A stretch of DNA of 64,000 nt. Origin: Candidatus Poribacteria bacterium. GTDB lineage: Bacteria; Poribacteria; WGA-4E; WGA-3G. Below are positions 11,510-64,000 of the stretch, piece by piece. The stretch lies in NCBI GenBank assembly GCA_022824835.1, contig JAJDZB010000074.1, positions 13,260 to 77,259 on the forward strand, in the 5' to 3' direction. Every line of letters begins with the position of its first letter. The first letter of the stretch is position 1. Below the pieces are notes generated by a model that was not told the DNA's origin, made no database searches, and saw nothing but the letters and a program-made list of their open reading frames with translations. The translations under genes were made by a program, and so were the position numbers.

Positions 11510-11695
11510 TTGGCGAGTAAATCATGGATTGCCAGAAATAAAAGAACACCTCGATTTCGCACAAGAAAATATAGTCGCTGTAAGCATTGTGGCCGAGCGA
11601 GAGGGTATCTGCGTAAGTTTGAATTATGTCGAATTTGCTTTCGTCTTTTTGCGCGAGCAGGCAAAATACCTGGTGTCAGAAAGGCGAGTTGGTAA
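11510..11695 (+). CDS. rpsZ: 30S ribosomal protein S14 type Z (zinc-binding)
   Basis: A TTG start gives (M)[60 protein letters not shown], with CxxC...CxxC. The 76-aa track ORF from 11465 overlaps the rplE stop. Confidence 0.85.
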
Positions 11696-11709
11696 GAAGG
11701 AGATTATTC

Positions 11710-12111
11710 ATGTCAATGACTGACCCAATTGCGGATATGTTAACTCGGATACGGAATGCTAATATGGCAGGACATGAGCGTGTTGAGGTGTCTGCGTCAA
11801 AGGTTAAATTGGAGATAGCACGTATTTTGTCAGAAGAAGGTTTCGTCAGAAACTACCGTCTCATTGATGATGGGAAGCAAGGGATCATCCGTATGTATCT
11901 GAAATACGGGGCAAGTAACAAAGAAAAAGCTATTACCGATCTGAAACGTATCAGCAAGCCTGGGAGGCGCGTTTACGCAAAATCAGACAAATTGCCGAGA
12001 GTTTTTGGTGATCTCGGGATAGCTATCCTATCGACATCAGACGGGGTAAAGACCTCATTGGAATGTCGACGGGCCAAAGTCGGCGGCGAAGTCCTCTGCT
12101 ATGTCTGGTAA
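11710..12111 (+). CDS. rpsH: 30S ribosomal protein S8
   Basis: [20 protein letters not shown].. is the S8 N-terminus. It is the internal ATG of the 11626 track ORF. Confidence 0.9.
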
Positions 12112-12170
12112 TCATACGTATAAGAAAACAAGCATACCTGCAAGTTGAAATTGTAGATTGGAGATATAGA

Positions 12171-12737
12171 ATGTCACGCATTGGACAGATACCGATTCCA
12201 ATTCCGAGTTCGGTGAAAGTTGATTTGAGCGATAGTGGCGTTGAGGTAGAAGGCCCCAAAGGCAAATTGAATTGGGTGATCCCGAATGGAATTGGTGCGA
12301 ATATAGAAGACAATGTTATCACATTAACCCGCCAGAGTGATAGGAAACAACAGAAAGCCTTACACGGTTTGGCCCGTAGTCTTATCGCAAATATGGTTGA
12401 GGGTGTATCTGAAGGTTTTGAGAAGAAACTACGCGTTGTAGGAACAGGGTACCGAGCTGAAGTCAATCGTCAGAACGTACTTACGCTTGATGTAGGGTAT
12501 TCACACACTGTGACGTACACGCCTCCTGAAGGCATTACGTTGACTGTTGACCAATCGGAAAATATTGATGGTCAGACACATATTCCAATTGTAGTTAGCG
12601 GTATTGATAAACAGGTTGTCGGACAGGTTGCTGCTTCTATCCGTCAAATAAAGAAACCTGAAACCTATAAACCTTGCAAAGGGATACGGTACGAAGGTGA
12701 GCGTGTAAGAGATAAAGAGGGCAAAGTTGCTGGTTAA
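12171..12737 (+). CDS. rplF: 50S ribosomal protein L6
   Basis: MSRIGQIPIPIPSSVKVDLS.. is L6-like, the internal start of the 12063 track ORF. Confidence 0.9.
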   Translation: MSRIGQIPIPIPSSVKVDLSDSGVEVEGPKGKLNWVIPNGIGANIEDNVITLTRQSDRKQQKALHGLARSLIANMVEGVSEGFEKKLRVVGTGYRAEVNRQNVLTLDVGYSHTVTYTPPEGITLTVDQSENIDGQTHIPIVVSGIDKQVVGQVAASIRQIKKPETYKPCKGIRYEGERVRDKEGKVAG

Positions 12738-12813
12738 TTTATCTGAAAATAGGAAAATAGACAGGTCGTTTTGCTAAATATAACGTTGAATGTTAGTTAC
12801 GGGAGGTTTTCCG

Positions 12814-13197
12814 TTGGATAAGGCGAAGAGAAAACAGTTCAGTTATCTACGACGAAAGAAGAGAGTGCGTCGCAAGATTAATGGGACAATAGAACGTCCT
12901 AGGCTTGCTGTAAATAGAAGTTTAAAGCATATATATGCACAAATAATTGATGATGAGAACGGCGAAACATTGGTTCATGCCTCAAGTTTGTCTCCAGAAG
13001 TGAGGGGAAATACTGCTGATAGTGGGGATAGTCCCAGTGGGAAGATAGAAATTGCCCAGAACGTCGGTCAACTCATCGCTCAGAAGGCAAAAGAACAAAA
13101 CATTGAGGGAGTCATTTTCGACCGGGCTGGTTATCTATATCACGGACGAATTAAAGCTCTCGCAGAAGCTGCAAGAGAAGGCGGGCTTAAGTTTTAA
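12814..13197 (+). CDS. rplR: 50S ribosomal protein L18
   Basis: TTG behind GGGAGG; ..[31 protein letters not shown].. is L18-like. Confidence 0.85.
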
Positions 13198-13229
13198 AAC
13201 TGCCCTAAAGTTCTTGAGAGGAGATATTT

Positions 13230-13760
13230 TTGCAAAAAGAAAGAATTAATCCTGACGATTATGAATTTGAAGAAAGACCTATACATGTTAATCGGGTAAT
13301 GCGTGTTGGGAAGGGAAGAAGAACACCGAGTTTCAATACACTTTCTGTTGTAGGCAATCGTGATGGCATTGTTGGGATCGGATTTGGGAGTGCGAGTGAA
13401 ATTTCTGGTGCTTTGCGTAAGAGTTTTGCTGATGCCCGGAAAAACCTGATTCGGGTGCCCTTGACCGGTGGCACACTTCCCCATGAAATCATTTGTGAGT
13501 TTAAGTCAGCGAAGGTTTTGCTAAAACCAGCTCGTCCTGGTACAGGCATCATTGCTGGTCATGCCACGCGTGCGATATTAGAACATGCGGGTGTCCGTGA
13601 TGCGCTGACCAAATGCTTGTCTTCAAGAAATGTCAAGAATATAGCAGAGGCAACGATGATCGGTCTGAAGAGTCTCAAAGATGTTAATGAAGTCGCGCGA
13701 ATTCGCGGCAAAACGGTAGATGAACTATTTCATAAACACACCAACAATTCTGATAGTTGA
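13230..13760 (+). CDS. rpsE: 30S ribosomal protein S5
   Basis: TTG start behind GAGAGG; ..HVNRVMRVGKGRR..GIVGIGFGSASE.. is S5-like. Confidence 0.9.
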   Translation: MQKERINPDDYEFEERPIHVNRVMRVGKGRRTPSFNTLSVVGNRDGIVGIGFGSASEISGALRKSFADARKNLIRVPLTGGTLPHEIICEFKSAKVLLKPARPGTGIIAGHATRAILEHAGVRDALTKCLSSRNVKNIAEATMIGLKSLKDVNEVARIRGKTVDELFHKHTNNSDS

Positions 13761-13796
13761 GCTTACGCAATCATACCTTAAGGAACAATAGAATCG

Positions 13797-14243
13797 ATGA
13801 AACTTAACGAACTCAAACCTGCTCCGGGGTCAAAACGGAAACGAAAACGTGTTGGACGCGGCCGGGGGTCAGGATATGGCGGTACTTGTGGACGTGGTCA
13901 TAAAGGACAGAAATCTCGCTCTGGCGGGTCAATACCTGCTTGGTTTGAAGGTGGACAGATGCCTTTAGTCAGGAGGGTACCGAAGCGGGGACCTCGCAGA
14001 CTTGGACATAAACGTTTGGTCTACGATGTTGTTAATATAAAAACGTTAAACTTATTTGATGAGGCGGCAGAGGTGAATCCTGAGTTGCTTCGCAAAGTCG
14101 GTATTATAAAAAAGAAAAATGCCCGTATTAAAATACTCGGGGATGGTGAGTTAGATAAACAATTAAAAGTGCGTGCACACAAGTTCTCAAAATCTGCAAT
14201 TGAGAAAATTGAAGCAAAAGGTGGCACAGTTGAGGTGATATAA
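13797..14243 (+). CDS. rplO: 50S ribosomal protein L15
   Basis: MKLNELKPAPGSKRKRKRVGRGRGSGYGGT.. is L15-like. It directly follows S5, with no L30 gene between them. Confidence 0.93.
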   Translation: MKLNELKPAPGSKRKRKRVGRGRGSGYGGTCGRGHKGQKSRSGGSIPAWFEGGQMPLVRRVPKRGPRRLGHKRLVYDVVNIKTLNLFDEAAEVNPELLRKVGIIKKKNARIKILGDGELDKQLKVRAHKFSKSAIEKIEAKGGTVEVI

Positions 14244-15593
14244 GTGATTAAGCCTATACAAAACGCTTTTAAGATTCCTGAATTGCGTAAACGGATTATT
14301 TTTTCTATTCTACTCCTAATCGTTTATAGACTTGGTGCCCACATTACATTACCGGGGATTGATGATGCTGCCTTAGCAATATTTTTTGATGAACTCACGA
14401 AGCGAACCGGGGATGTGCTTGCTCTGATTAATATTTTTTCGGGTGGTGCATTTAGTCAGATGACGATCTTCGCTCTGGGTATTCAACCTTATATCAGTGC
14501 TGCTATTATTATGCAGCTGCTTCCCATGCTTATCCCCTCACTTGAAAGGCTCTCTAAGGAACCGGATGGCAGAAAAAAGATTACACAATATACGCGTTAC
14601 GGCACTGTGTTACTCAGTATTGTGCAAGGGATTACGATTACTGTTTTGTTGAGAAATCCGGGGAATTTAGGTGTTGGTGAGCATACAATCGTCCATAATC
14701 CGACTGTCTGGTGGCACATATTGACCGTCATAACCTTAACCGCAGGTACTGCCTTCGTGATGTGGCTTGGTGAACAGATTACCGAACGCGGTATTGGTCA
14801 AGGCATATCAATTATTATCACTGTTGGTATTATGGCAGGTTTCCCGAGTGGTGTATATACAGTCGGTAATAGTCTGATAAATGATACAAATGTTGGACTT
14901 TTGCATCTCGTGATATTAATCGCACTCATTGTCATTGCTGTGGGGGGTACTATTTTCATACACCTGTCAGTACGCAAAATTCCGGTTCAATACGGAAGGC
15001 AAATTCGAGGTGGAAAAGTATATGGGGGACGTGCAATGCATCTACCTTTACGGGTTAACACCGCAGGCATGATTCCTATTATCTTTGCTATCTACATAAT
15101 GATGTTTCCGGGATTTCTGATTGGAATCTTACCAGCGGATTGGGAATGGGTACAAACTTTGGCAGGTCTCATGGATCCGAGTAACCCATCCATAATGTAT
15201 CTTACCATTTATGCGTTGTTGATTATAGGATTCACTTATTTCTACACTGCTGTACAGATCAACCCGGTTGATATGGCTGAGAACTTACAGAAAAATGGTG
15301 GTTTCATACCTGGACTACGACCCGGTAAACAGACAGCCGACTATATTAATACAACATTGACTCGGATAACCCTTCCGGGTGCTCTGTTTCTTGCGGGGAT
15401 TTCTGTGATCCCAATTTTTATTACCAGTCGGCTAGGACAAGGTCAGTTCGGGGGCATGGTGGAAGGCGCGTCTATTTTGATTGTTGTAGGTGTTGTGTTG
15501 GATACAGTTTCACAAATTGAATCTTACTTGACAATGCGACACTATGATGGATTCTTGAAGGATAGACGACTCAAGGGACGTAGAGGAAGATAA
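14244..15593 (+). CDS. secY: protein translocase subunit SecY
   Basis: 449 aa with 10 predicted TM segments. GTG start; the secY position in the spc operon. Confidence 0.93.
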   Translation: MIKPIQNAFKIPELRKRIIFSILLLIVYRLGAHITLPGIDDAALAIFFDELTKRTGDVLALINIFSGGAFSQMTIFALGIQPYISAAIIMQLLPMLIPSLERLSKEPDGRKKITQYTRYGTVLLSIVQGITITVLLRNPGNLGVGEHTIVHNPTVWWHILTVITLTAGTAFVMWLGEQITERGIGQGISIIITVGIMAGFPSGVYTVGNSLINDTNVGLLHLVILIALIVIAVGGTIFIHLSVRKIPVQYGRQIRGGKVYGGRAMHLPLRVNTAGMIPIIFAIYIMMFPGFLIGILPADWEWVQTLAGLMDPSNPSIMYLTIYALLIIGFTYFYTAVQINPVDMAENLQKNGGFIPGLRPGKQTADYINTTLTRITLPGALFLAGISVIPIFITSRLGQGQFGGMVEGASILIVVGVVLDTVSQIESYLTMRHYDGFLKDRRLKGRRGR

Positions 15594-23944: not shown

Positions 23945-25324
23945 CTAATCAGTTACCCTTCGGGTGTATTTGGTACCTCTCCCTTTTCCTATCATAGACA
24001 ATAACCCTTTATTTATCATATCCTTTAGTTCTCCATAAGCAATCCGGTGTGAGACTTGATTAATCTTCATGTATTCTCTATTTGTGATTTCTCCGTGTTT
24101 TTGTGCATAGGAAAAAGCGTTCTTTTGACGTTCGTTCAACTGTTCGGAAATGTCATCAATTTCTACAATAGTGGTCTCCTTGATAGGTGAATCAAAGATG
24201 ACTTTGGTTTCAAGTGGGTGTAGTTCGTAGCGCGGCTCTGTGTTTTCCCACTCCTTACACAATCTTTGCATCATTTTGATTCCAGACCCGTACTTTTCAA
24301 TAAAACCGACATCATACATCAATTGAGTCAAAATAGGATTTACCGGCTTGTGCCTAGGTTTATCTGGACTAACCCCTTCCGGAAAGGTGCCGGGACTAAT
24401 AATTTCAACTCGGTCATCAAATATGAACACCCGAACATCAGCAGGTTCTTGATAATTTCGATGAATTAACCCGTTGATAATCCCTTCTCGCAAGGCATCA
24501 AGCGGGTACTCAAACTTATCGTCTCGTTGAAAACTTTTTGAAGTCCGAAAACTAAGTAAGCGAATATTTTTTCTTATGAACTCCTCAGTAGCATTTACAA
24601 TTTCCCAGAGTGTTCCTGAGCAATCAAGTCGATCAATGACTGGATGGGTGACAGATGTCCCCTTGAATCTGACAACTCGCAACTGTGCGTTGTGAAAGAA
24701 TCTTTGAGGGTGTTTTCCAAAAAAGAGAATCCCTGCATGGGTCAGTGTTTCTTCTTCGCTAATACAGTTAATGTTTCTCAACAAGTCTGGTACAGTCATG
24801 TTTTGTGGTTGTGCTACGTTGCGACTCGCTTCTCTACGTGTTAGGTACCATTGGATCTTTTGTTCATCTATATCATGATTTTTGGCACTAACGACTGAGA
24901 GTTGATCCCATGTTTGTCCAACAGACTTAAGGTGCATCTGTGCAATCTCCTGCGGAGACATGACTCGGTTACTATTTCCGACTCTCTTGTAACATGTCCC
25001 TTTAACAGAGACAGGTTTTATTTGAGACTCCGTAATTTGTACTAACAGAACTGATTTTCCTTCAATGTTAGCAGATTCAAGTTCCATAACTACCCGCGGA
25101 TCAATGGCTTGAGATATCCGGTTTGTTATATCAGTTAATGTCTCTTTGCATAAGGTAATTCCTTTGATTTCTTTCTTATCGGAAACACCGATGAGAATGG
25201 AACCACCATTAGTATTGGCAAATGCAGCAGCGGTCTCAATAGTTTCTTGATCGCATCTCTCTTTAAATTCGGTCGTGCTATTTTCACCTTGCACAATGCG
25301 TTGTTTGAGTTCTGTAGTTATCAT
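23945..25324 (-). CDS. AlbA_2 (divergent AAA / Schlafen-like) + HATPase_c_4 + wHTH protein, the so-called putative transcriptional regulator / RecG-C-like family
   Basis: The N-terminus ..TEFKERCDQETIETAAAFANTNGGSILIGVSDKKEI.. is AlbA_2-like. The C-terminal ..RNYQEPADVRVFIFDDRVEIISPG.. is HATPase-like. Confidence 0.6.
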   Translation of the reverse strand: MITTELKQRIVQGENSTTEFKERCDQETIETAAAFANTNGGSILIGVSDKKEIKGITLCKETLTDITNRISQAIDPRVVMELESANIEGKSVLLVQITESQIKPVSVKGTCYKRVGNSNRVMSPQEIAQMHLKSVGQTWDQLSVVSAKNHDIDEQKIQWYLTRREASRNVAQPQNMTVPDLLRNINCISEEETLTHAGILFFGKHPQRFFHNAQLRVVRFKGTSVTHPVIDRLDCSGTLWEIVNATEEFIRKNIRLLSFRTSKSFQRDDKFEYPLDALREGIINGLIHRNYQEPADVRVFIFDDRVEIISPGTFPEGVSPDKPRHKPVNPILTQLMYDVGFIEKYGSGIKMMQRLCKEWENTEPRYELHPLETKVIFDSPIKETTIVEIDDISEQLNERQKNAFSYAQKHGEITNREYMKINQVSHRIAYGELKDMINKGLLSMIGKGRGTKYTRRVTD

Positions 25325-25345
25325 AATTTTATAATCGCCAATTAC

Positions 25346-25573
25346 CTATTCTTCCCAAGGATCCTCAACGGGCATTGGTTCACTTGGTTCTTCGTATATT
25401 AACTTGACTCGTATGGTGCCCGATTCACGAGGTTCGAGAATAGGTATGACCGCATCCAAGTTAAGAATGTCGCCTTCGTCATAAAATGGAAAAACGGGGT
25501 GTTGCTTCGGTTTTTCTTTAGCTGTGTTTGCCTGTTGTGTTTTTTTCATGATATGTTTAGTACTCCTTTGCAT
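25346..25573 (-). CDS. Small hypothetical protein (75 aa), paralog of 23668-23871
   Basis: Shared motifs KEKxKQH..F.F.D, SGTIRVKL.Y and P.P.E..WEE. Confidence 0.45.
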   Translation of the reverse strand: MQRSTKHIMKKTQQANTAKEKPKQHPVFPFYDEGDILNLDAVIPILEPRESGTIRVKLIYEEPSEPMPVEDPWEE

Positions 25574-25727
25574 ACAATTTTAACAGCAGTTGATGATAGC
25601 AGTAGACGATTTATTCTGTTCGGGTTGGGAGGGTAAAGTTTTTGGCAGATGGTTACTCAAGCACTCAAAAATCTTTCAGTTTCAAAAATCAGCATCGTAG
25701 TTAAACAATTCACTTATGCATCGGACA

Positions 25728-26027
25728 TTAACAGGTTGTCGTGCATTCATCAGACCGAAACGAATAAAGTCGTATCCGTTTTTCAAGTTTTTCTAATAGA
25801 GAACGTAAGCAAACAACGGTAAAGCAATTTAGTCTGCCGTTTCTTATTTGTGTCATCTTGTATTGACTAATTCTTAAACAATCCGCAGCTTCCTTTTGAG
25901 TCATTCCTTGTTCGGCAATTAAAGAATTGATCTCATAAGCCAATTTTGCTTTTGCTAATCTCTCATCAGGTGAAGGAAGTTCTAAATCTTTAAATACATT
26001 GCCTGAACTTAGAGTATAGTTTGCCAT
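25728..26027 (-). CDS. XRE-family HTH antitoxin (HigA-like)
   Basis: It starts 5 bp after the upstream toxin gene and carries an HTH motif. The C-terminal 20 aa diverge from the paralog, which could reflect a frameshift or simple divergence. Confidence 0.7.
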   Translation of the reverse strand: MANYTLSSGNVFKDLELPSPDERLAKAKLAYEINSLIAEQGMTQKEAADCLRISQYKMTQIRNGRLNCFTVVCLRSLLEKLEKRIRLYSFRSDECTTTC

Positions 26028-26031
26028 AATT

Positions 26032-26397
26032 TTATTTCCTTTCTGCTAAGTCTTGAGCAATTTTCAAGCGACGTCTGATAATATCTATTTCTTGTCTCGG
26101 TGTTTGAATGCCCTTTTTGGATTTCTTCTGAAACGCATGTAACACGTATATTTTCTCGTTGATTTTAGTTGTGTATATCGATCTATAGGTATTAGTCCTG
26201 AAAGTACTTCGGATTTCCATGACACCGGTAAATCCCTTTAAGGGTTTGGCTTTAGGGTGTTTATCACCTTCTTGTGCAACATATAGCGCGTATCCCACTT
26301 CATCTTGGACTTCAGGCGGAAACTCTTTTAAATCATCATGAGATGAACCAACCCAAACTAATTCTTTTATCTCATGTTCCAGTTCGGTTTCTTTCAT
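26032..26397 (-). CDS. Gp49-like / HigB-type RelE/ParE-superfamily toxin
   Basis: 121 aa. ..IYVLHAFQKKSKKGIQTPRQEIDIIRRRLKIAQ.. matches the conserved C-terminus of the Gp49/HigB family. Toxin-first gene order. Confidence 0.7.
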   Translation of the reverse strand: MKETELEHEIKELVWVGSSHDDLKEFPPEVQDEVGYALYVAQEGDKHPKAKPLKGFTGVMEIRSTFRTNTYRSIYTTKINEKIYVLHAFQKKSKKGIQTPRQEIDIIRRRLKIAQDLAERK

Positions 26398-26584
26398 ACC
26401 GAATCCTTCAATTTAGTAGAGAGATGCTGTGTCTTTTCGGTATAATTATAACGGAAAATCGGTAATTGTGCAAACGATTTCAATTGTAAGGGTGTGTAAA
26501 GTTTTTGTCACTCTATTTGTCTGAACCAGGATTTTCAGGATTTTGAGATTTGACCAGGATAAGACTCCCTCGATTAGATGAAAC

Positions 26585-26722
26585 GGGTGTGTAAGTATTC
26601 TGTCACCTTTTTTCATAAGAGACGGCACCCGGAGAGTGCCTACTACTATTAAGAGCTTATGAAATTCTAAAATTGATACTTTAGTGACAAAAAGTTTACA
26701 CACCCAATTGTAAAGGTGTGTA
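26585..26722. repeat. MITE family D, full copy with both inverted termini
   Basis: GGGTGTGTAAGTATTCTGTCACC...GGCACCCGGAGAGTGCC...GTGACAAAAAGTTTACACACCC. Confidence 0.75.
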
Positions 26723-26750
26723 AAGTTTTTGTCACTAGTAGACAGTCCAG

Positions 26751-26850
26751 ACTAAAAAAGTAGGTCGGGTAGAGGAACGAAACCCGACATGAAACCACAT
26801 ACAATAAGCAAAGTCGGGTTTCGCTTCGCTCTACCCATAAATCAACGATG
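26751..26850. repeat. Palindromic repeat family B (..AGTCCAGACTAAA..GTAGGTCGGGTAGAGGAACGAAACCCGACA..), also at 17296-17396
   Basis: Direct comparison of the two loci. Contains the hairpin GTCGGGTTTCG/CGAAACCCGAC. Confidence 0.6.
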
Positions 26851-26945
26851 TGAATGCGCGTATGGCATTCATCGGGTATAAACTTAAGAAAACTCAGAAG
26901 ATCTGATGAATCTCTCTGAATCCTTATGGTTATACGGGTTGTCTT

Positions 26946-27068
26946 CTCTTCAGTCCCGTAGGGACGATATGTCATGCAACGGTATTTATAAACATATCGT
27001 CCCTACAGGACTAAAGATACCGTGTTCAACGTGATCTATAAACATATCGTCCCTACGGGACTAAAGAG
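26946..27068. repeat. Cluster of three REP-like hairpin units (TATAAACATATCGTCCCTACGGGACTAAAGAG) in mixed orientation
   Basis: Copies at 18963, 26946-27068 and 34853-34974. Units are separated by only 12-16 nt and some are inverted, so this is not a CRISPR array. Confidence 0.75.
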
Positions 27069-27149
27069 CATCCCTAACTCTCAGATTATCCCAAAATTAA
27101 CGCCTCTAGTGACAAAATCTTTACACACCCAAGCCTGCTCTTCCCTACC

Positions 27150-30100
27150 TCAATTTCCCAACCCCATACGATACTTGATGTCGTAGTTGATGATAAAGTC
27201 TAATTCCTCGTCTGTAAACCCGTAGTGTTGTGCAAGCACACGGTCAATTTTGTCTATGATATGCTTGGAGTGACGCGGAAAAAACTCATCATAAACTACT
27301 TTGCCAGTAGTTTTGTAATTGGTTTCCTTGCGATTTGCATGATTACGATAGTCTTTCATTAGTTTTTTGGTTATTTCGGACAATTCAATCATCTTTATCT
27401 GATTCAGACTTTCAGGGTTAAAGGAGAAATTGATGATTTCTCTTATATTGAGATGTCGACAATCGGAGGATATAATAAACCACCAATAAAACAAAGAACT
27501 GTTGAGAAAGCAGCAAACTGCAAGGGCATGTTCTTCTTTACTGAAGCGTAAATCCTTTATTTGTAGTGATTGTTTTTTTCCGTCTCGTTCGTTCCAAAAG
27601 TATGGTACAAAATCGGTAGCACGAATCCAATATTGGGGGGAATTGTGAAAATGGCAGGCGAATTTTCCAGTCTTAAAACTCAAAAACTGTTTTTTTGTAT
27701 TCTTGATTTTTCTTACAATGCTTTTCCCAGTATCATCTGCTATCTTGGGAAATATGCCTTTAATGCAAATATCTGTTATGTCTTCATAAGTTATACCTTG
27801 AAACAGAGTGGAACGAGTTTCTGAAAACCATCTGTTATATTGCGTGGCGTAAAGTGTTGCTATATCCAGACTCTTTTCTTCTTTAGTGATAAAAATAGTA
27901 GCACGTATATGTTGCAGATCGTCAAAGAGTTTTCCCGGTCTATCATCAAAATTAGCAAACCAACTTATCCTATTTGGTGATTTGAAAAGGGACTGTGCTG
28001 GTATCATGCGATCAGTACAGACCAGAGGCAGTTGAACGATCATTCCAACTTGTCCTTTGCTTAAATCAATAGATCTCTCAATAGTCATTGCATACAAATT
28101 TCCGCATTTTTCGGTCATGTATCCTTTTAATGTGTACTGTTGCTTAACCTTGCTATACTCAACATAAGGCGGATTACCTATAATCACATCAAACCCATCC
28201 TCTTGCAGAATTCCGTAAAACGCGATAAACCAGTGGAAAGGTTTGTGTGAATTTAGCCACTTTTCGTAATCAGGTTGTTTGTTCAGATCAACGTCGTGTA
28301 CGCCGGCCAAGTATTCGTTGAGTTCATCTTCTAATACCTGAAGCCTACTTTGCAAATTCAGTTTGTCGGCAGGTTTCACATCACCGCCTAACGTTGTTTG
28401 TTGTCTGCGAAACTCTACAAATAGTTGCTTAACGTCCTCTGCCTTTTCTTTGATGCGTTCCATTGTATTGTCAAAGTCAAGCCTGCCAGAAATCGATTCT
28501 TCTATCTCGTTGTATGTTGCAAAACCGACAAGCGTATTGCCTGCCTGAATGTTAAAGTCAATGTCGGGTAAAGGTTCAATCTGTTTTACATCTTCAATCT
28601 GTGCTACCATTTTAAGGAAGAGGCGCAGCTTGCAAATCTCAATTGCTTCCTCCATAATGTCTACACCGTAGAGGTTGTTAATGATAATAGACTTAAGCAC
28701 AAAATATTCTCGGTTGGGATGCTGGGCGATGCGGTCAAGGGTTTCGCGAAAGTCTTTGTATTTGCGGGAGGGTCGCGATTCGGAGATCGCTCCTACCTGA
28801 TTTGGTCGCGATTCGGAGATCGCTCCTACCTGCTCTGGTCGCGATTCGGAGATCGCTCCTACCTCGTCAAGGAAGACTTGCATACGGTCAAGGCATGCCT
28901 CGTAAAGCGGTTCAAGGATGTTTAGTGCGGCAAAGAGGAATGCGCCGGATCCGCATGTCGGGTCAAGCACTGTCACTTGCGTGATGGCTTTCCAGAAGGC
29001 ACGGAGTAGTTCTGGTCCCTCACAGCTTTCTATGACATCCTGCGCAAATTGACCGATATTGAGGTTATAGGTTATTAGATCGTTGATGTTGTCAATCTCT
29101 CCGTTTGCAAGTTTGCTGCGGACGGTATCGTGACGTTGCCGTCGTGCAGCTACCTCACGCCAAATTTCTGTGGGTAGGGCAATCTCATCAACTCCATCAG
29201 GTGCACGTTCATTCCACTTTGTGCGTTCAGATACATTATCAATTCCGATAGCAATTTCCGCTGGTAAAGGTAATTCAACACCTTTTTTAATTGCATCGTA
29301 GATATAGCGATCCGGGTCTTTTTGTAGGAGTTTCCAAACTGATGTATCACCTTCAAAAGCGATTTTGCATGATTTCTTTGCTGCATCAAAAAGAAATGGA
29401 ATGATGGTATTCTTGCTGATGTATTCCGTTATGTCCTCTTTGGTATAGTATGCACCCATCTGTTTCTGGTTGATGTATTTCTCAAAGATGTAGCCAAGCA
29501 CATCAGGGTTAATCTCTTTATCGTTTTTGAGTGGTCGGTCATCAAGATGCCAATCGTATTGTTCAAAGAAGGCAAAAAGTTTCTCAAATGCTGTGTCAGG
29601 GATTTCAATGTTCTGACCATGCAGTGTCTCAATTTCGTGTTTTTGAAAGATGCCGCCGTTGAGGTAAGGGATTTTACCGAGCAATCTTCTCATTTCAGGG
29701 GTACGTTCATCCTCTGGTTTGGCAAATCCTTCAAAGAAAAGCGGACAAAGGAATTCTTTGTAGTATAGATCCGTGCCGTTTCTTTTGGTCTCAGTAAGTT
29801 TGGTTTGCAAATATTTATCGTTTTTGTTCAGAAAGCTTTTCTTTTGGATGAAGTAGATGAACATGAGGCGGTTGAGCATCACCGATACATACCACTTTTG
29901 CATCTCTTCATCGGGAATGCCGCTGAGGAATTCGAGGAATGCGTCATGCTCTTTTTTGAAACGGTCATAAAACTTTTTGGTGACCTTTTCAGCAAAAAAC
30001 GCTTTCCCGACGCGTTCAATCACACCAAAAAGTCCGATTTCTTCTTCCTCATCTAAACTAAAAGCTATGTTTTGCAGTTTTTGGATCAGCGAATCACCGG

Positions 30101-30473
30101 ACTGCCAAGTTTCGTAGCGGCGTTCACGGCATGCGTCCGGTCTCCCCTGTTGACGTTTGACCCACTGCCATATTTGTATGGTTTTTTCAGCATTCGTATA
30201 GATGATAAAGTTTTCATGTGAGGCTTTTGCGACCTGTCTTTGAATTTTACGACGGGTTGCATAATCTGGAAAGGGTTGTTCTTCTGTCATCTGTGGACAT
30301 TCATAGACTACCATACCGCGTTTTTCAGCAAGTGCTGTGAGAACATATTTGGTTTCATCTACGATAACCGGGAGTGTTTGAGAATGATTATCCCAACCGA
30401 GAACTTGTGTAAAGAGATCCTCAAATTCAGATTCTCGGAGGTATTGGCGTGTTTCTTGAGGGGTAAATTGCAT
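27150..30473 (-). CDS. Large Eco57I/PglX/DrmMI-type N6-adenine DNA methyltransferase (1107 aa) with N-terminal and C-terminal extra domains
   Basis: SAM motif I VLDPTCGSGAFLFAAL and catalytic motif IV GNPPYV; about 480 aa precede them and ~350 aa follow. An in-frame 33-bp x3 repeat encodes (VGAISESRPxQ)x3 in the linker. Confidence 0.75.
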   Translation of the reverse strand: MQFTPQETRQYLRESEFEDLFTQVLGWDNHSQTLPVIVDETKYVLTALAEKRGMVVYECPQMTEEQPFPDYATRRKIQRQVAKASHENFIIYTNAEKTIQIWQWVKRQQGRPDACRERRYETWQSGDSLIQKLQNIAFSLDEEEEIGLFGVIERVGKAFFAEKVTKKFYDRFKKEHDAFLEFLSGIPDEEMQKWYVSVMLNRLMFIYFIQKKSFLNKNDKYLQTKLTETKRNGTDLYYKEFLCPLFFEGFAKPEDERTPEMRRLLGKIPYLNGGIFQKHEIETLHGQNIEIPDTAFEKLFAFFEQYDWHLDDRPLKNDKEINPDVLGYIFEKYINQKQMGAYYTKEDITEYISKNTIIPFLFDAAKKSCKIAFEGDTSVWKLLQKDPDRYIYDAIKKGVELPLPAEIAIGIDNVSERTKWNERAPDGVDEIALPTEIWREVAARRQRHDTVRSKLANGEIDNINDLITYNLNIGQFAQDVIESCEGPELLRAFWKAITQVTVLDPTCGSGAFLFAALNILEPLYEACLDRMQVFLDEVGAISESRPEQVGAISESRPNQVGAISESRPSRKYKDFRETLDRIAQHPNREYFVLKSIIINNLYGVDIMEEAIEICKLRLFLKMVAQIEDVKQIEPLPDIDFNIQAGNTLVGFATYNEIEESISGRLDFDNTMERIKEKAEDVKQLFVEFRRQQTTLGGDVKPADKLNLQSRLQVLEDELNEYLAGVHDVDLNKQPDYEKWLNSHKPFHWFIAFYGILQEDGFDVIIGNPPYVEYSKVKQQYTLKGYMTEKCGNLYAMTIERSIDLSKGQVGMIVQLPLVCTDRMIPAQSLFKSPNRISWFANFDDRPGKLFDDLQHIRATIFITKEEKSLDIATLYATQYNRWFSETRSTLFQGITYEDITDICIKGIFPKIADDTGKSIVRKIKNTKKQFLSFKTGKFACHFHNSPQYWIRATDFVPYFWNERDGKKQSLQIKDLRFSKEEHALAVCCFLNSSLFYWWFIISSDCRHLNIREIINFSFNPESLNQIKMIELSEITKKLMKDYRNHANRKETNYKTTGKVVYDEFFPRHSKHIIDKIDRVLAQHYGFTDEELDFIINYDIKYRMGLGN
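28771..28869. repeat. Perfect in-frame 33-bp tandem repeat x3 inside the methyltransferase gene
   Basis: ggtcgcgattcggagatcgctcctacctg occurs 3 times with 1-3 nt variation at unit ends. Confidence 0.85.
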
Positions 30474-30644
30474 AGGTGTTCCTATAGGTTGTCTGATTTG
30501 ATGAGTAATTCGTCATTCGTGAGATGACCGATGACAAGTTTAGGTTTTTTCATTTAATACCTCTGGCAAAAGGGATTATGTTAATGTCAATTATACATAA
30601 CTTAGATATGAAATTCAAGGTTTTACTACTCGTATATTTGATAT

Positions 30645-30812
30645 AACGTGAGTTTGATAATTAAATGCAATATTCATTGTAGGTTGGGTTGAGGCACGCC
30701 AATCAAATATTAACTGGCAACATGTATTGCTCTATAATGGGTCAAGATGTTGGGTTTCGTTCCTCAACCCAACCTACGTAAGTTATTTGTTCTGATTTAT
30801 CAAACTCACGTT
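30645..30812. mobile_element. MITE family A (TIR AACGTGAGTTTGATAA ... TTATCAAACTCACGTT), inserted between the helicase and methyltransferase genes
   Basis: Full copies with both termini at 30645-30812, 37447-37599, 38751-38883, 43683-43804 and 57703-57822. A partial copy lies at 47745-47822. Confidence 0.75.
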
Positions 30813-30901
30813 GATATAGTAACTTTTCTTTTATTTCTGTATATTGTGTGGTATACTTTTAAGTATGCTTTTATAATCATTTGTGAAAACATAACGAGGA
30901 A

Positions 30902-31108
30902 ATGACCATGCAAACTACCATTATTGAGAAACTTCAGTATCTTTCACCGAAGGACTACGAAGAAGTGCTAAATTTTATTGATTCCTTGTTAACAAAAAAG
31001 GTTTCAGAAGAAAAAAAGAAACCGAATTTGGAGTGGATTGGTGGCTTAATAGAATATCGAGGGCAGTACACAGCACTTGAACTTCAGAAGAAGGCATCAA
31101 ACAGATAG
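30902..31108 (+). CDS. Small hypothetical protein (68 aa), possibly antitoxin-like (resembles the DUF2281-type fold: ..IEKLQYLSPKDYEEVLNFIDSLL..)
   Basis: An ORF with ATG, on the strand opposite to the flanking large genes. The similarity is a weak recollection only. Confidence 0.3.
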   Translation: MTMQTTIIEKLQYLSPKDYEEVLNFIDSLLTKKVSEEKKKPNLEWIGGLIEYRGQYTALELQKKASNR

Positions 31109-31152
31109 GGGAAGACAAGAACCTGCCGATGTGTTGTAAGGAAATCCCCTCA

Positions 31153-34100
31153 TTAGGAAGAAAGACCTAATGAACACACGATTTTGGGTTCTTGCGTTTG
31201 GATTTCTTCTTCAACAATGCAGAGTCGTCCATCGTCCCATAAACCGATCACTAATTCAGCAAGTTTTTCGTTGGAAATACCAGAGCGAAGTTGTCGATTA
31301 AGAATATCTTTTGCCACTGGACGTAGCGGGTAACGATAGATATTTTCTATTACTTGTTTGAGTTCTGGTATTGCGAAGAGAGTCCCTTCTACTTCTGATG
31401 CATAATCTTTTAATCGTTCATAAGTGCGGAAACGTGCTCCAGTTGATCGTCCGAGTTGTCCACCAATTGATCTGCCCTCAGAGACAATGAGTTTTGCTGC
31501 TTCCTCTACAAGGTGATGGTGTTCCTCCAAAGGTTGTAGTGCTTCTGTATCAGGTTTGCATTCTGCTGCTTGTAGAATAGTGAACTGTGATTCTGTTACA
31601 CTCTCTCCATTTTTGTTTATCCATGCCAGCGCGTCGTTATCATCTCCGGTTCTGATATATACCAATGCACCTTCAGGTTGTGTATCTGTGGGTGAGTGCG
31701 GTTTAGTTGAATAAACAACAGATGGGAGTTTGGTGATGATTTTCTCTAAATCTGGGTTTTCGGTAATAGCGTTTTTCCATATCTGGTAGGCGTGAGATGC
31801 AAGGTCTACGTCATTATCCATATCGTCATCAAGTAGTCCAGCATTTTCATGATACAAGTTAACGATTGCTTGGTTTCCATTCTCCCCGTCATCTTCAAAA
31901 AAAGCTTCGTCTGTTCCGACAACCTCAGCGTTTTCTTGTAGACGTGCACGTACGCGTCCGCGTAGATGTATGATACGTTCAACACCTTGTGCGGGTAAAA
32001 AGGAGTAGCACAGTATTTCTTCTGCAGTTTGACCGATTCTGTCAACGCGTCCAGCGCGTTGGACTAAACGTATAATTGCCCACGGCAGATCGTAGTTTAC
32101 GACTATTGCACAGTCCTGTAGATTCTGACCTTCACTCAGAACATCCGTGCTGATGAGGAGGCGCAATTCATCTTCTTTTCTGAAAGCCCCTTTTTTGTTA
32201 TTGCTAATAGGACTGAATCGGGTTGCCAACCACGTAGGATTAGCAGAATCACCGGTAGCTGCTGCTAAGTGAGTCAAACCGCGTTTATCTAATGCTGCTT
32301 TTAGATAATGTACAGTATCAGCGAATTGGGTGAAAACTAAAACCTTTGTATCGGGATGTGTTTGCGTTAATAGTTCCTCAAGAGCGTTAAGTTTGGCATC
32401 TTTTGACTCATCCCAATCACCGTATAGTTGTAGAATCTGGATCAGTGCTTCTGCGTCTTGCGTAAGTTGTTTCTTTAGGATCGGTAAGAATAGATCAGAA
32501 CGGATCCACTTAAAACGGGTGCTGTACTTTGTCAAATAGATTTGATAAATAGCAGCAGCGCGTTCTTTGTATTTTTCAATTGTATACAAATTGGAATGGG
32601 AATCGGTTGTATCAATTAATTCGTCATCCTCATCATCTGAAGTAGCTGAAATGAGATTGACATCATCGTTGTCTGTATCGTTAAATCGTGTATCAAGCAT
32701 AGATGCATCAAGTCCACCGATTGGAAATGGTTCGCCGTTTTCAATTGCATATAAGAAGATATAGTTTCGTAGAATGTGTCGATCAACAGACTGTAAAAAT
32801 GCTTTTCCACTACTTTCAAGCCGTTTGAATAGATTAGTTCGGCAAAATCCCATCAACCGTTTTCCACCACGTGATAGGTCTTGTAGTCGTTCTTTTTCAG
32901 TTTCGGTAGGTGGTTCTGCTGGTGCATCATCAATGTAATTTGCCAGTTCATAACGTGCCAAGTTAAGTCTGTTTATGATATTCACTACATTTTCTGAATA
33001 TAATTGTGCATAAGTGTCGTCAGGATTTTTGTCGTCAATTGTGAACGCAACTGTTTTGGGTGCGCGTGTTGGGAAGTAGGATCGTGTTCCACCTGGAAAC
33101 AGTAGGTATTTTCTTTTTGAGTTGGTATCTTCTTCAGCATAGTTTTGCATGATGAAGCTGCGTGTTCTTCGGACAAGGTATCGCCGCATCAGTTCTCTCC
33201 AATCGTCAATTTCTTCGCTTTTTTCAAACGCTGCGAGGGTGTTTGTCCCGCATTGATGATCACTAAGGAATTTTAGTTCACCAACTTTATTGATGCAATG
33301 GTCTGGACGTATACCGAGGTCTTCAGTTTCATCAACAAAAAGGCGGAGTTGATTTGAGAGATCAAGGAATGATTTGTTGTATGGTGTGGCAGAGAGGAGA
33401 ATGACTTTACTTTCATTTTGCTGGATATAGTCTTGAATTGCTCGGTAACGTTTGCCTTCTCGGTTTCTAAGATTGTGGCTTTCATCAATCATGACTAATC
33501 TGTAACGTCTGAGATCGGGGAGTTCGTTTTGCACTTGACTTATTGAAAGCACTTTTCCACGTAAACGGTATTCTTCACGATAATATTCCCACATCTGGAC
33601 AAGGTTCTTTGGGCAGATGATAAGTGTTTCAAGATCATCCTTGTCTTCCATTATCCTTGCCAGTGCTGTTCCCATAAGTGTTTTACCCAGACCGACAACA
33701 TCACCGATAAGTACACCGTTACGTTTGTTTAGATGGTGTGCTGCGATTTTGACAGCAGCTGTTTGAAAGTCAAAAAGTTTGTCTTCAAAATCGCTTGGTA
33801 TACTGAATTCATTCAAGCCTGCGCGTGCTTCATGTGAAAGGTGATATGCCATTTTTATGTAGATATGATAGGGTGGAATCAACTCCTCACGTGCCCAACT
33901 CTGCTCAATGATTTCGGCTAATTCCTTAGATATATCTATGCACCATCTATCGTTCCATCTATCTTCGAACCAGTTTTGTAATTTCTGACAAGCGTCAGCA
34001 TCAAGCACATCAATGTTGAGTTCTCCCTGTTTTGAGAGTCCAGCGAGTGTTAGGTTACTACTGCCAAGGTAACCCACAATTGGTGCAGCAAGGTCTTGTC

Positions 34101-34539
34101 TGTGTAGTAGGTAAAGTTTGGCATGCAGTGGATGTTGTAGAAATAGTTTGACTTTTACTTTTTCGTTCCGAATTTGGTGTGCTAATTGGCGTAGACCGAT
34201 TTCGTCTTCACGTGTGGGGATTCCGATGGTTAATTGTTCCCGAAATTCCTCTGCTAACTTCTTTTTGATGCGGAGTGCAGTTTGATTATCTAATCTGTCT
34301 GTCTCTTTAATAACGTGCATGGCATGTCGTAGTTTTTCATTGGGGTTTTGATGCATTCCGACGAGTAAACGGCAGCATGCCTCATCTCCACCGTGCCAAT
34401 TTTCAATGTAATTTGCGAGTCTTTTCCAGCCTCTGAGGTTAAAATAACCCACGCAAAAATCTGCATGGGTAGAGGCTTCAAGGGTTTGTTGTAGTGCTTG
34501 AAGGAGCGGTTGGTCAATATTGTCAAAGATTCTGGGCAT
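31153..34539 (-). CDS. PLD-family (HKD) nuclease domain fused to an SNF2/SF2 helicase (1128 aa)
   Basis: The N-terminal ..ADFCVGYFNLRGW..HPLHAKLYLLHRQD..GYLGSSNLT is an HxK...GSxN PLD motif. Helicase motif I is GDVVGLGKT, motif II MIDESHNLRN, and motif VI QRAGRVDRIGQ. Confidence 0.75.
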   Translation of the reverse strand: MPRIFDNIDQPLLQALQQTLEASTHADFCVGYFNLRGWKRLANYIENWHGGDEACCRLLVGMHQNPNEKLRHAMHVIKETDRLDNQTALRIKKKLAEEFREQLTIGIPTREDEIGLRQLAHQIRNEKVKVKLFLQHPLHAKLYLLHRQDLAAPIVGYLGSSNLTLAGLSKQGELNIDVLDADACQKLQNWFEDRWNDRWCIDISKELAEIIEQSWAREELIPPYHIYIKMAYHLSHEARAGLNEFSIPSDFEDKLFDFQTAAVKIAAHHLNKRNGVLIGDVVGLGKTLMGTALARIMEDKDDLETLIICPKNLVQMWEYYREEYRLRGKVLSISQVQNELPDLRRYRLVMIDESHNLRNREGKRYRAIQDYIQQNESKVILLSATPYNKSFLDLSNQLRLFVDETEDLGIRPDHCINKVGELKFLSDHQCGTNTLAAFEKSEEIDDWRELMRRYLVRRTRSFIMQNYAEEDTNSKRKYLLFPGGTRSYFPTRAPKTVAFTIDDKNPDDTYAQLYSENVVNIINRLNLARYELANYIDDAPAEPPTETEKERLQDLSRGGKRLMGFCRTNLFKRLESSGKAFLQSVDRHILRNYIFLYAIENGEPFPIGGLDASMLDTRFNDTDNDDVNLISATSDDEDDELIDTTDSHSNLYTIEKYKERAAAIYQIYLTKYSTRFKWIRSDLFLPILKKQLTQDAEALIQILQLYGDWDESKDAKLNALEELLTQTHPDTKVLVFTQFADTVHYLKAALDKRGLTHLAAATGDSANPTWLATRFSPISNNKKGAFRKEDELRLLISTDVLSEGQNLQDCAIVVNYDLPWAIIRLVQRAGRVDRIGQTAEEILCYSFLPAQGVERIIHLRGRVRARLQENAEVVGTDEAFFEDDGENGNQAIVNLYHENAGLLDDDMDNDVDLASHAYQIWKNAITENPDLEKIITKLPSVVYSTKPHSPTDTQPEGALVYIRTGDDNDALAWINKNGESVTESQFTILQAAECKPDTEALQPLEEHHHLVEEAAKLIVSEGRSIGGQLGRSTGARFRTYERLKDYASEVEGTLFAIPELKQVIENIYRYPLRPVAKDILNRQLRSGISNEKLAELVIGLWDDGRLCIVEEEIQTQEPKIVCSLGLSS

Positions 34540-34852: not shown

Positions 34853-34974
34853 CCCTCTTTAGTCCCGTAGGGACGATATGTCATGCGACGGTATTTATAA
34901 ACATATCGTCCCTACGGGACTAAAGAGGAGGCGGGACATGTTTTCTATAAACATATCGTCCCTACGGGACTGAG
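34853..34974. repeat. REP-like hairpin cluster (three units, mixed orientation)
   Basis: Same units as at 26946-27068. Confidence 0.75.
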
Positions 34975-35231
34975 GTTACTATTAGATTGTGTTTGCCTTT
35001 TTAAATTGACGCATAAGGTGGTTGTAGAAAGAAGCACAATCAAGGATGAATGTGCTACAAAGAGAGGCACAATCTAACAGAATGTGCTACTTTGTTGCAG
35101 GCCTGTATCTTCTCAGAAGTCGTTGGATACGTTGGGGTAGACTGATAAAAGACATGATCAGTGTAAAAGATAAGGCTTGAAATCAGAGTTATACTGAATT
35201 CAAGCCTTATGAAGACAATCTATCTATGTAA

Positions 35232-53588: not shown

Positions 53589-53712
53589 GGGTGTGTAAGT
53601 ATTTTGGCACTTTTTTTCATAAGAGACGGCACTCGGAGAGTGCCTACTACTATTAAGAGCTTATGAAATCACAAAACTCATACTTATATTGACAATAACT
53701 TTACACACCCAT
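53589..53712. repeat. MITE family D full copy
   Basis: GGGTGTGTAAGTATTTTGGCAC...GGCACTCGGAGAGTGCC...ctttacacaccc. Confidence 0.7.
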
Positions 53713-61948: not shown

Positions 61949-62401
61949 ATGATGGATAGATTTGAACCGAAAAACATTGAAGAAGTTAATGCGGCTTTAA
62001 AATACTTCAATGATTTTCACGATGGATACGTTGAAGGTTTTGAAGTAAAGTTTGAAAACTACAAGAGCATTGATGAAAAAGGTATCGCAAATGGCATCGG
62101 ACAGGCTGATATGACAATTATTCTCACTGTAAACGCTTATCCTTATGGTAAAGAACATAACCAATTAGTGAGGGTTGAATTCATTGATGTCAAGTCTTAT
62201 GAGATCATATCTGAAAGACATGATCCGTTTCCGATGTGGGGTATTTCTGAAGCAACTACAAGATCTGCCCCTGAACCTTATGAAGATGATATATATTGGG
62301 ATTTTGCTTTTTTGGGAGACAAAACAACTTTCAATGTAACGTGCGCCAGCATAGTTTTTACAAATATCGGTTATGTTATGAATAAAGAAAAACAGTCGTA
62401 G
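61949..62401 (+). CDS. Hypothetical protein (150 aa)
   Basis: An ORF 15 bp after the WD40 gene on the same strand. No recognisable motif. Confidence 0.4.
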   Translation: MMDRFEPKNIEEVNAALKYFNDFHDGYVEGFEVKFENYKSIDEKGIANGIGQADMTIILTVNAYPYGKEHNQLVRVEFIDVKSYEIISERHDPFPMWGISEATTRSAPEPYEDDIYWDFAFLGDKTTFNVTCASIVFTNIGYVMNKEKQS

Positions 62402-62763
62402 ATTTTGCAGAAAAGTGTTAAAATACGCATTAGAAAACTCCTTTATTTTGGTATAAAGATTTCATCATATAACAAAAGAGTTCTCTTTAGACAAAAATCA
62501 TTCAAATTATTTATCATACTCACGTTTGTGTAGTCTCTACTTATACCATTTCGAATTGATAATGTCTCTTTTTTGTAGCACATTCTGTTAGATTGTGCCT
62601 ATCTTTGTAGCACATTCATCCTTGATTGTGCTTCTTTGTAGCCGAACAAAGACATTTAAGGATCCAGAAACCCCTTCCGTGCCCATCTATGTCAGCTAAG
62701 TTAACTGGGGCGCGATAATCCGCGATTCTGATAAAAAGGTGACAGAATACTTACACACCCAGT

Positions 62764-63119
62764 CTTTCCGAACAAACGAAGCACATTTCCCCTTCTGTCC
62801 CTTTGCCATGCCGTAGTTTCAATTCCCTTCAAATGGGAAGGGCTTTCCGAACTCCCTGTGCATGACTGCTTTTCTGCTGCACTTGTCATATAGTTTCAAT
62901 TCCCTTCAAACGGGAAGGTCTTTCTGAATGCTTGTCTGAACCAGGATTTTCAGGATTATAGGATTTTTTCAGGATAAGAGGTATCTTCTCGTATTGATGG
63001 ATTTTGTTTCAACTTTCTTCAAACGGGAAGGGCTTTCCGAACTTGACAGAGCAAATGAGTACACAGATCAACGTCTTGCTCAGTTTCAATTCCCTTCAAA
63101 CGGGAAGGGCTTTCCGAAC
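62764..63119 (+). CDS. placeholder
   Basis: placeholder. Confidence 0.
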
Positions 63120-63678
63120 AAACCCTTATGAACACTACACCAAACACGATTTGATAGCAAAAATGACGCTAAAACCAGTCCCCATCTGTGTTCAGGGGCA
63201 ATTTTGACTGCATTGGCAATCAATCAACAAATCGCGTAAGTTTACAATTCATGCGACTGATATAAGTATACGCTAAATCTACAGAAATGTCAAACTTTTT
63301 TAAGGGTGTGTAAAGTTTTTGCACTCTATTTGTCAGAATCGCAGATTACGCGGAAGGGGAAAGGGGATGGAAGAATGGAAGGGTGGAAGAGGGGAAGAGG
63401 GGAAGATTGGAAGGGTGGAAGAGGGGAAGAGGGAATGGGTGGGAGGATGGAAGAATGGAAGAGGCACAATCTAACAGAATGTGCTACAAATCGGATGTCC
63501 TTTATTCGCTGCAAGGATTTCCGGGGTTGTTTTCCCTCCATTAGAGAGAATTGAACGTAACCCGAGCAAAAAGTTTTAAGGTATCTCGTTATTGAATGAT
63601 GGCGTTAGTCGTTTGGACTTGGAAAAGCGGTTCGTTCTAAGTGTCAGGCAACGCATCTGATGCTGTCATGACTTTCGT

Positions 63679-64000
63679 CTAATCGTCATCATCGTCGTCA
63701 TCATCGTCGTCATCATCGTCATCATCATCATCATCGTCGTCGTCGTCATCGTCGTCGTCCTCATCGTCCTCATGGTCATCATCATGGTCGTCGTCGTCAT
63801 CATCGTCATCGTCATCAAAACGAAGATTTGGAAAATCCGCTCGGTCTTGCTGGTTTATCCAATCTCTGAAGAGTTGAATTTGCGCAGCAGTCATCGGTGG
63901 ACCATGTCCTGCAGGAGGCATCCTGCCTGATACCATTTCTTCTACAATATCACTACTGTTGGCATTCCCAGGAATAAAAACTGACTCTCCTTCGTCGTCT
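63679..64000 (-). CDS. Hypothetical protein with a ~55-residue poly-Asp tail. Partial: the ORF stays open upstream past the window end.
   Basis: The ORF is open from 64000 (..DDEGESVFIPGNANSSDIVEEMVSGRMPPAGHGPPMTAAQIQLFRDWI..) to a (D)n tail broken by single H/E residues and encoded by a GAC/GAT trinucleotide run. Confidence 0.5.
   Translation of the reverse strand, partial: DDEGESVFIPGNANSSDIVEEMVSGRMPPAGHGPPMTAAQIQLFRDWINQQDRADFPNLRFDDDDDDDDDDHDDDHEDDEDDDDDDDDDDDDDDDDDDDDDDDDDD

Follow-up and report, generated by a model that had tools for sequence, protein, structure and literature searches.

Among the closest described counterparts of the locus studied here are the orphan arrays of Anabaena sp. 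PCC 7120, a multicellular cyanobacterium. In Reimann et al. 2020 (10.1101/2020.04.14.041012), citing Hou et al. 2019, CR_1, CR_5–8 and CR_10–11 are presented as orphan, fragmented arrays. Cas6 enzymes from remote loci process them in trans, and the array CR_6/CR_7 is split by a MITE of 134 nt (10.1101/2020.04.14.041012). Enrichment of CRISPR in sponge symbionts is also known (PMC5099237).

Here we analyse a DNA stretch of 64,000 nucleotides (the window) from a Poribacteria-like sponge symbiont. The window contains a ribosomal-protein operon, a defence island, WD40 proteins and glycosidases, and close to its right end lies a short array of 37-nt repeats. The initial annotation described the array as a degenerate orphan carrying a MITE fragment inside one spacer. 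This description was right in kind and wrong as to the polarity of the array and the nature of the 76-nt interval. Our results make it likely that this array is what remains, at the leader-proximal end, of a larger chromosomal Poribacteria array of the type III class (Cas6-processed), lying on the minus strand and eroded by recombination and deletion.

Results

Repeats and intervals of the array

The 37-nt repeat GTTTCAATTCCCTTCAAACGGGAAGGGCTTTCCGAAC is found at 62816–62852, 62893–62929, 63006–63042 and 63083–63119 with 1, 3, 3 and 0 mismatches, respectively, which agrees with the positions and the degeneracy annotated initially. No copies of the 37-mer are expected by chance (100 shuffles). 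Three genomes that have the orthologous site are needed to describe the intervals: L007 (a sister strain), L013 (a third strain) and L012 (a genome of 5.9 Mb). The elements of the array are as follows.

63083–63119, minus strand: repeat R4, leader-proximal, perfect consensus, GTTCGGAAAGCCCTTCCCGTTTGAAGGGAATTGAAAC on the minus strand; hairpin of −9.8 kcal/mol
63043–63082, minus strand: spacer S3, 40 nt, the newest; identical in L007, missing from all other loci
63006–63042, minus strand: repeat R3, three substitutions, hairpin lost, handle position −8 altered; fold of −3.8 kcal/mol
62930–63005, minus strand: S2, recurrent module of 76 nt; first ~50 nt (plus strand) homologous to a MITE interior, last 26 nt array-only
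62893–62929, minus strand: repeat R2, three substitutions outside the 3' half with the hairpin and handle (minus strand); hairpin retained, −7.2 kcal/mol
62853–62892, minus strand: spacer S1, 40 nt; common to L007 (97.5%), L013 (95%) and array B of L012 (95%)
62816–62852, minus strand: repeat R1, one substitution in the loop; hairpin of −9.8 kcal/mol
62774–62815, minus strand: spacer S0, 42 nt, window-only, between the stub and R1; not listed in the initial annotation
62761–62773, minus strand: stub R0', the first 10 nt of the minus-strand repeat (GTTCGGAAAG) plus 3 nt, cut by a MITE terminus

Folding of the transcribed strand bears out the internal hairpin CCCTTC/GAAGGG proposed earlier, with a 6-bp stem and −9.8 kcal/mol for both R4 and R1, while the R3 fold is no better than that of shuffled sequences. 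The truncated repeat end reported at a MITE terminus is present as well: on the plus strand the stub reads CTTTCCGAAC at 62764–62773 and is separated by 3 nt from the terminus, which ends at 62760. CRISPR arrays consist of direct repeats of 23–47 nt that are regularly spaced by unique spacers of similar length. The locus has four 37-nt repeats and a 10-nt stub, and S0, S1 and S3 (42, 40 and 40 nt) are each single-copy in the window. The exception to spacer uniqueness is the 76-nt S2, a repeated module. Of the three spacers first listed as unique (40, 76 and 40 nt), the lengths hold for all and the uniqueness for S1 and S3.

Arrays with the same repeat next to cas genes

The window locus is a true CRISPR array, as its repeat recurs in identical form in cas-adjacent arrays of Candidatus Poribacteria. 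In a scan of one genome per species the repeat was found only in two Candidatus Poribacteria MAGs, and two additional loci with the same repeat, L015 among them, were taken from metagenomes. Same-repeat arrays in Candidatus Poribacteria genomes have from 23 to more than 43 units. In L001 a gene for Cas6 (PF10040) and a cas2-like ORF directly precede at least 23 repeats with unique spacers of 35–43 nt; homologs of this Cas6 are numerous in Poribacteria. One of them in L005 closes a classical type III-B operon (cmr1–6; Cmr2, Cmr3, Cmr5, RAMPs, Cas_APE2256), downstream of which lie cas2 and then an array with the same repeat. In L004 a Cas10/Csx19/RAMP operon with cas6 is followed by cas2, a reverse transcriptase, cas1, a leader of ~400 nt and 30 repeats, which run on the cas strand and read GTTCGG...ATTGAAAC. 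L015 has a stand-alone cas6 with an array of 5–6 repeats amid non-cas genes. In all four of these loci the repeat is physically linked to cas genes.

The repeat has the stem-loop and the 8-nt 3' tag ATTGAAAC of the type III/Cas6 class, and Cas6 and Cas10 co-occur in L004 and L005. Looking at L004 more closely, the region 11518–15537 encodes Cas10 palm2, Csx19 and large RAMP fusions, one with an RRM_1 domain, and upstream of the array there are cas2, a SWIM-domain protein, a separate reverse transcriptase and cas1. From the Pfam hits (Cas10 palm2, Csx19, RAMPs) and the general classification of type III systems, we take this locus to be III-D-like. The presence of the reverse transcriptase and cas1 in L004 suggests RNA-derived spacer acquisition for the repeat family to which the window array belongs.

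Repeat-family classification with Rfam gave weak matches only. The best were the 37-nt direct-repeat models CRISPR-DR54 (RF01367) and CRISPR-DR8 (RF01321), with R2, R4 and R1 scoring 23–28 bits against a gathering score of 39. No Rfam family was matched at the gathering score, which places the window repeat outside the curated Rfam DR families. These sub-threshold values (28 bits at the top, for DR54) would fit a generic tandem or dispersed repeat of the same kind as the satellites and MITEs of this intergenic region, as would the mere four copies, two of them degenerate, the repetitive interval S2 and the repeat-rich surroundings. That the locus is not CRISPR at all is nevertheless hardly credible and is refuted by the cas-linked arrays of L001, L004 and L005 and by the L012 array, in which the identical repeat separates tens of unique spacers; a homologous leader and the single-copy S0, S1 and S3 argue in the same direction. 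Non-unique intervening sequences had been named beforehand as the sign of a generic tandem repeat, and it is S2 alone that is repeated.

Another candidate was a mini-array like that of a cyanobacterial type V-K CAST with Tn7-like ends, prompted by the repeat shape and the WD40 genes. It was rejected: in the scan of one genome per species the repeat is seen only in Poribacteria genomes, the 'end-like' repeats turned out to be MITE termini and a satellite, and the window is without a tRNA, tnsB/C, tniQ and cas12k.

There are no cas genes in the 62.7 kb preceding the array (window positions 1–62700), so the cas-free ~5 kb noted earlier upstream of the array extends over all of this length, and the array is indeed an orphan within the window. 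In the syntenic L013 no cas genes were found within ~4 kb to the right of the array. The right-edge ORF of the window (63679–64000, minus strand, running off the window) is PSCyt-like with a near-pure aspartate tail of ~45 residues. Its L013 ortholog (322 aa) has a Planctomycete cytochrome C (PSCyt1) domain, and the length of the aspartate tail varies among strains.

Polarity, leader and promoter

Four independent observations indicate that the array is read on the minus strand. First, the minus-strand repeat ends in ATTGAAAC after the 6-bp stem; a stem followed by an 8-nt 3' tag of this type is the canonical layout of Cas6-processed repeats. Second, the L004 array comes after cas1 and the leader in the same orientation as the minus-strand reading of the window array. 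Third, in L001 and L005 a degenerate terminal repeat sits at the array end opposite the leader side. Fourth, a leader with a promoter lies to the right of R4.

63120–63303, minus strand: CRISPR leader, short form, 184 nt; homologous to six other leaders including cas1-adjacent ones, without the ~105 nt normally found beside the first repeat
63265–63293, minus strand: sigma-70-type promoter; −35 TTGACA (63293–63288), 17-nt spacer, −10 TATACT (63270–63265)

Given this reading and a leader at the right, R4 is the repeat nearest to the leader and the most recent one; the old end of the array is the MITE-truncated stub. The initial annotation had offered a leader-distal remnant as one interpretation; the opposite is the case.

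Identity of the window leader is 98.9% to that of L007, 88% to the leader of array C in L012 (19599–19780) and 74% to the L004 leader downstream of cas1. The promoter call rests on consensus and conservation. In the promoter scan TTGACA-17-TATACT scores 11/12, all seven leaders compared, from different genomes, share the −35 TTGAC without variation, and a −10-like hexamer is located at equal distance. The transcribed side of the array therefore has an AT-rich leader and a promoter, with the repeat-proximal ~105 nt absent. The window, L007 and L013 lack this repeat-proximal part (~60–105 nt), which is conserved in L012, L002, L004 and L015. The missing segment includes a block of ~60 nt, GTTTGGTTTTGGC...CTGTGACTGG...GGGG, that is conserved in 4/4 arrays with a full leader. 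Note that a consensus scan also finds a terminator-like hairpin with a T-run, CCCTGAACACAGATGGGG ACTGGTTTTA, inside the leader (63180–63197, minus strand), which is just partly conserved among other leaders.

The 76-nt interval is a recurrent module

S2 has ten copies in four genomes, five in L012, two each in L007 and L013 and the one in the window, with all 76 nt shared. Similarity to the MITE interior, seen in the window at 22881 and 26515, is confined to the first ~50 nt. The last 26 nt have no other occurrence in the window and are seen only in arrays, and S2 copies always adjoin repeats. In one L012 copy S2 is fused to a repeat via C(C/T)GAAC, a microhomology between the repeat end and the module. 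The element GTCTGAACCAGGATTTTCAGGAT contained in S2 is located at 22885, 26519 and 62934, with a two-mismatch copy at 22956; the positions given for it before (22888, 26518 and 62933) were right within 1–3 nt.

S2 is a partly MITE-derived module and no fresh insertion. What had been taken for a MITE fragment inside one spacer of the window array is a recurrent module of single origin. The simplest reading is that S2 arose once, in an ancient event, and was then duplicated by recombination within arrays.

Repeat elements flanking the array

On both sides the array is bordered by composite repeat elements.

62572–62760, minus strand: left flanking repeat element; MITE-type terminus ...CTTACACACCC ending at 62760, B repeats TTTGTAGCACATTC..GATTGTGC at 62572–62637
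63304–63490, plus strand: right flanking repeat element; MITE terminus GGGTGTGTAAAG..., 8-nt (GGAAGNNN)n tract, B repeat at 63462–63490

They belong to an abundant family of small, non-coding, multi-copy elements with terminal inverted repeats, as is typical of MITEs. Complete copies of ~121 nt are found at 26585–26705 and 53589–53710 with the TIR GGGTGTGTAAG...CTTTACACACCC. The copies inspected show no clear target-site duplication, and there is no cognate MITE transposase in the window. L013 has the left element at the identical site, and L007 lacks it. The right element adjoins the promoter at a distance of 10 nt upstream from the −35 box; this junction is the same in L007, L013 and L012 and is thus ancestral.

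The two elements are inverted copies of a composite element of ~188 nt (MITE terminus and B repeat), and as a result nested inverted repeats surround the array: 29 nt with 100% identity (62572–62600 and 63462–63490) and 45 nt with 76% identity (62716–62760 and 63304–63348). Such bracketing, seen also in the L012 CRISPR region with inverted copies of the same MITE terminus, could mean that the mini-array is mobile, i.e. cargo carried between inverted MITE copies as in a composite transposon (62572–63490) with the perfect 29-nt repeats as its outer ends. We give this explanation a very small probability and reject it. The geometry is wrong, as the MITE termini (GGGTGTGTAAAG) face the array and leave it outside both elements. 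There is no target-site duplication around the outer repeats, L007 has the array and the right element without the left one, and the repeat was not found in IMG/VR viral contigs. Moreover, the array occupies the same chromosomal site in four genomes with S1 shared and the leader orthologous, which amounts to vertical descent.

There are several places where repeats are cut or adjoined by MITE ends or by modules derived from MITEs: at 62760 in the window, at 12208 and in the five S2 copies in L012, and at 6463–7100 in L002. The repeat end CTTTC(C/T)GAAC shares a motif with the MITE sub-terminal sequence TTTGTC(T/C)GAAC. It is conceivable, if quite doubtful, that this MITE family specifically exploits CRISPR repeats as recombination or homing sites and so fragments arrays and disperses them with their promoters into orphan modules that sponge-symbiont type III systems might use in trans.

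Several other repeats of these intergenic regions deserve description. The terminal inverted repeat of the MITE reads GGGTGTGTAAAG(T)TTTTGTCAC; further termini are at 22858, 26489, 26720, 27100 and 34637, and the copies are often nested. MITE nests lie between the genes of a defence-island-like cluster at 23945–34539 (minus strand), which includes a Schlafen/AlbA_2 and HATPase_c_4 protein (23945–25324, minus strand), an Eco57I/MmeI-like methylase-type protein of 1107 aa (27150–30473, minus strand) and an SNF2 helicase that carries a PLD nuclease domain at its N terminus (31153–34539, minus strand). The purine-rich tandem tract (GGAAGNNN)n of 8-nt units occurs at 63350–63470 in the window, at 5975–6190 and 4940–5095 in L007 and at 6106–6217 in L002; within the right element it is ~120 nt long in the window and ~215 nt in L007. 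The B repeat TTTGTAGCACATTCTGTTAGATTGTGCC, with an internal GCACA/TGTGC palindrome, is dispersed in the window, at 62572–62637, 63462–63490 and 35028–35093. In L012 (13829–15151) it forms a satellite of 31-nt and 89-nt period that is more than 1 kb long and lies between two CRISPR segments. In view of its regular spacing there, we considered whether TTTGTAGCACATTC...GATTGTGC makes up a second CRISPR-like array in L012 and rejected this, the units of the 89-nt-period satellite being identical. Finally, a palindromic family TAGTCCCGTAGGGACGATATGT...ACATATCGTCCCTACGGGACTAAAG (34858–34975 and 26955–27065 in the window, 722–1037 in L002, 12640–12830 in L012) occurs as tandem pairs inside MITE nests and once within the L012 CRISPR region.

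Orthologous sites

The 150-aa gene at 61949–62401, upstream of the array, served as the synteny anchor. At the orthologous site L012 has three array segments with a common orientation, of 3, 8 and at least 43 repeats. Its large array has a leader orthologous to that of the window, S1 is shared, and the same MITE terminus abuts the promoter. The arrays, the leader and S1 at the same site identify it as an ancestral CRISPR site. L007 has S1-R2-S2-R3-S3-R4-leader at ~98% identity and no new spacer adjoining the leader. Its trailer is rearranged, with two copies of the [S2-R3] unit and without S0, R1 and the left MITE. L013 keeps the promoter; most of its R3 is gone, as are S3 and R4 entirely and one half of the leader. 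The more distant syntenic genomes L010 and L011 have no array. Across the orthologous loci the repeat count thus goes from more than 50 to 4 and to 2.4.

Comparison of these loci indicates that the decay is mainly by deletion and by recombination between repeats, S2 modules and MITE copies. The initial annotation had suggested a decaying array being colonised by MITEs. The array is degenerate and entangled with MITEs, as proposed; its decay is not, in the main, a matter of MITEs continuing to colonise spacers.

A second, independent case of old repeats interleaved with MITE-like sequence was observed at the trailer end of a 9-repeat array in L002 (6086–7100). There a unit of ~250–350 nt is triplicated. 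It is made up of CAGGA-type repeats, GTCAGAATCGCGGATTT, the GGAAG tract in reverse complement and a single CRISPR repeat.

Discussion

Is the array stump still of use to the cell? The promoter and leader sequences make it probable that the stump is still transcribed. Three of the four repeats (R4, R2 and R1) keep hairpin and tag, and they are upstream of S3, S1 and S0. Since these upstream repeats retain the hairpin and the ATTGAAAC handle, crRNAs for S3, S1 and S0 could be made if other parts of the genome encode Cas6 and a type III effector. Cleavage of R3 is improbable. Spacer acquisition has probably been lost. The latter we infer by assuming that the missing leader segment has a role in integration, an assumption based on the leader recognition by Cas1–Cas2 and on the conservation of the segment.

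No target was found for any spacer in the viral and plasmid databases. More specifically, there were no protospacers among INPHARED phages and PLSDB plasmids and none in IMG/VR by exact 22-mers; S3 had no match in JGI metagenomes either. The exact-word searches are of limited sensitivity. The spacers have no self-targets in the window.

It could be argued that the locus is maintained as a functional orphan mini-array whose crRNAs, for example that of S3, are used in trans by a remote type III complex for defence or regulation. The promoter is near consensus and conserved, the leader-proximal repeat is perfect, and a second strain, from another sample, has S3, R4 and the leader in identical or nearly identical form. 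In Anabaena PCC 7120 orphan arrays are processed in trans by remote Cas6 (10.1101/2020.04.14.041012), and fragmented modules such as the stand-alone cas6 with a short array in L015 exist in the lineage studied here. We nonetheless regard a maintained function as unlikely. At the same site L013 has deleted S3, R4 and half of the leader, which shows that the module is dispensable; no spacer targets were found, and R3 is disabled. As to the conservation, identity between the window and L007 is ~98% in the array region and 97.9% in the neighbouring non-coding flank, and since the two are alike neither selection nor neutrality can be concluded from it.

We therefore prefer to see the locus as an eroded leader-proximal stump. 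At this chromosomal position an ancestor would have had a far larger array, or a set of arrays. Most spacers would have been lost by recombination and deletion among the repeats, the duplicated 76-nt MITE-derived module and the flanking MITE copies, and the same events would have removed the conserved leader–repeat junction. In the present state the sigma-70 promoter at 63293–63265 is predicted to drive the shortened leader and then R4-S3-R3-S2-R2-S1-R1-S0 and the 10-nt stub, running into the MITE. The stump would now be evolving as a dispensable relic.

The value of these results is mainly in annotation: the minus-strand array, its leader and its promoter can be labelled as an orphan CRISPR remnant of the type III class. 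The orthologous loci provide a clean natural decay series that includes the loss of the leader–repeat junction, and this series could help to define the leader motif for spacer integration in the RT-Cas1-linked type III systems of sponge symbionts.

Compared with the type III-B (Cmr) and Cas10/Csx19 loci of Poribacteria, the window locus has a 37-nt repeat that is identical except for the polymorphic position 27 and a homologous leader in the same orientation. Unlike them, it is without cas genes, has four repeats and a stub, and its leader is truncated. With the orphan arrays of Anabaena PCC 7120 it has in common the lack of cas genes, a repeat that matches cas-linked arrays elsewhere and the expected dependence on a remote Cas6. 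The phylum is different, processing in trans has been demonstrated for the Anabaena arrays and is inferred for the window array, and only the latter has lost its leader–repeat junction and has one repeat without a hairpin. The locus reveals no new kind of system. It is a fresh example of a known phenomenon, as orphan, fragmented arrays eroded by MITEs and recombination represent an ordinary fate of CRISPR loci.
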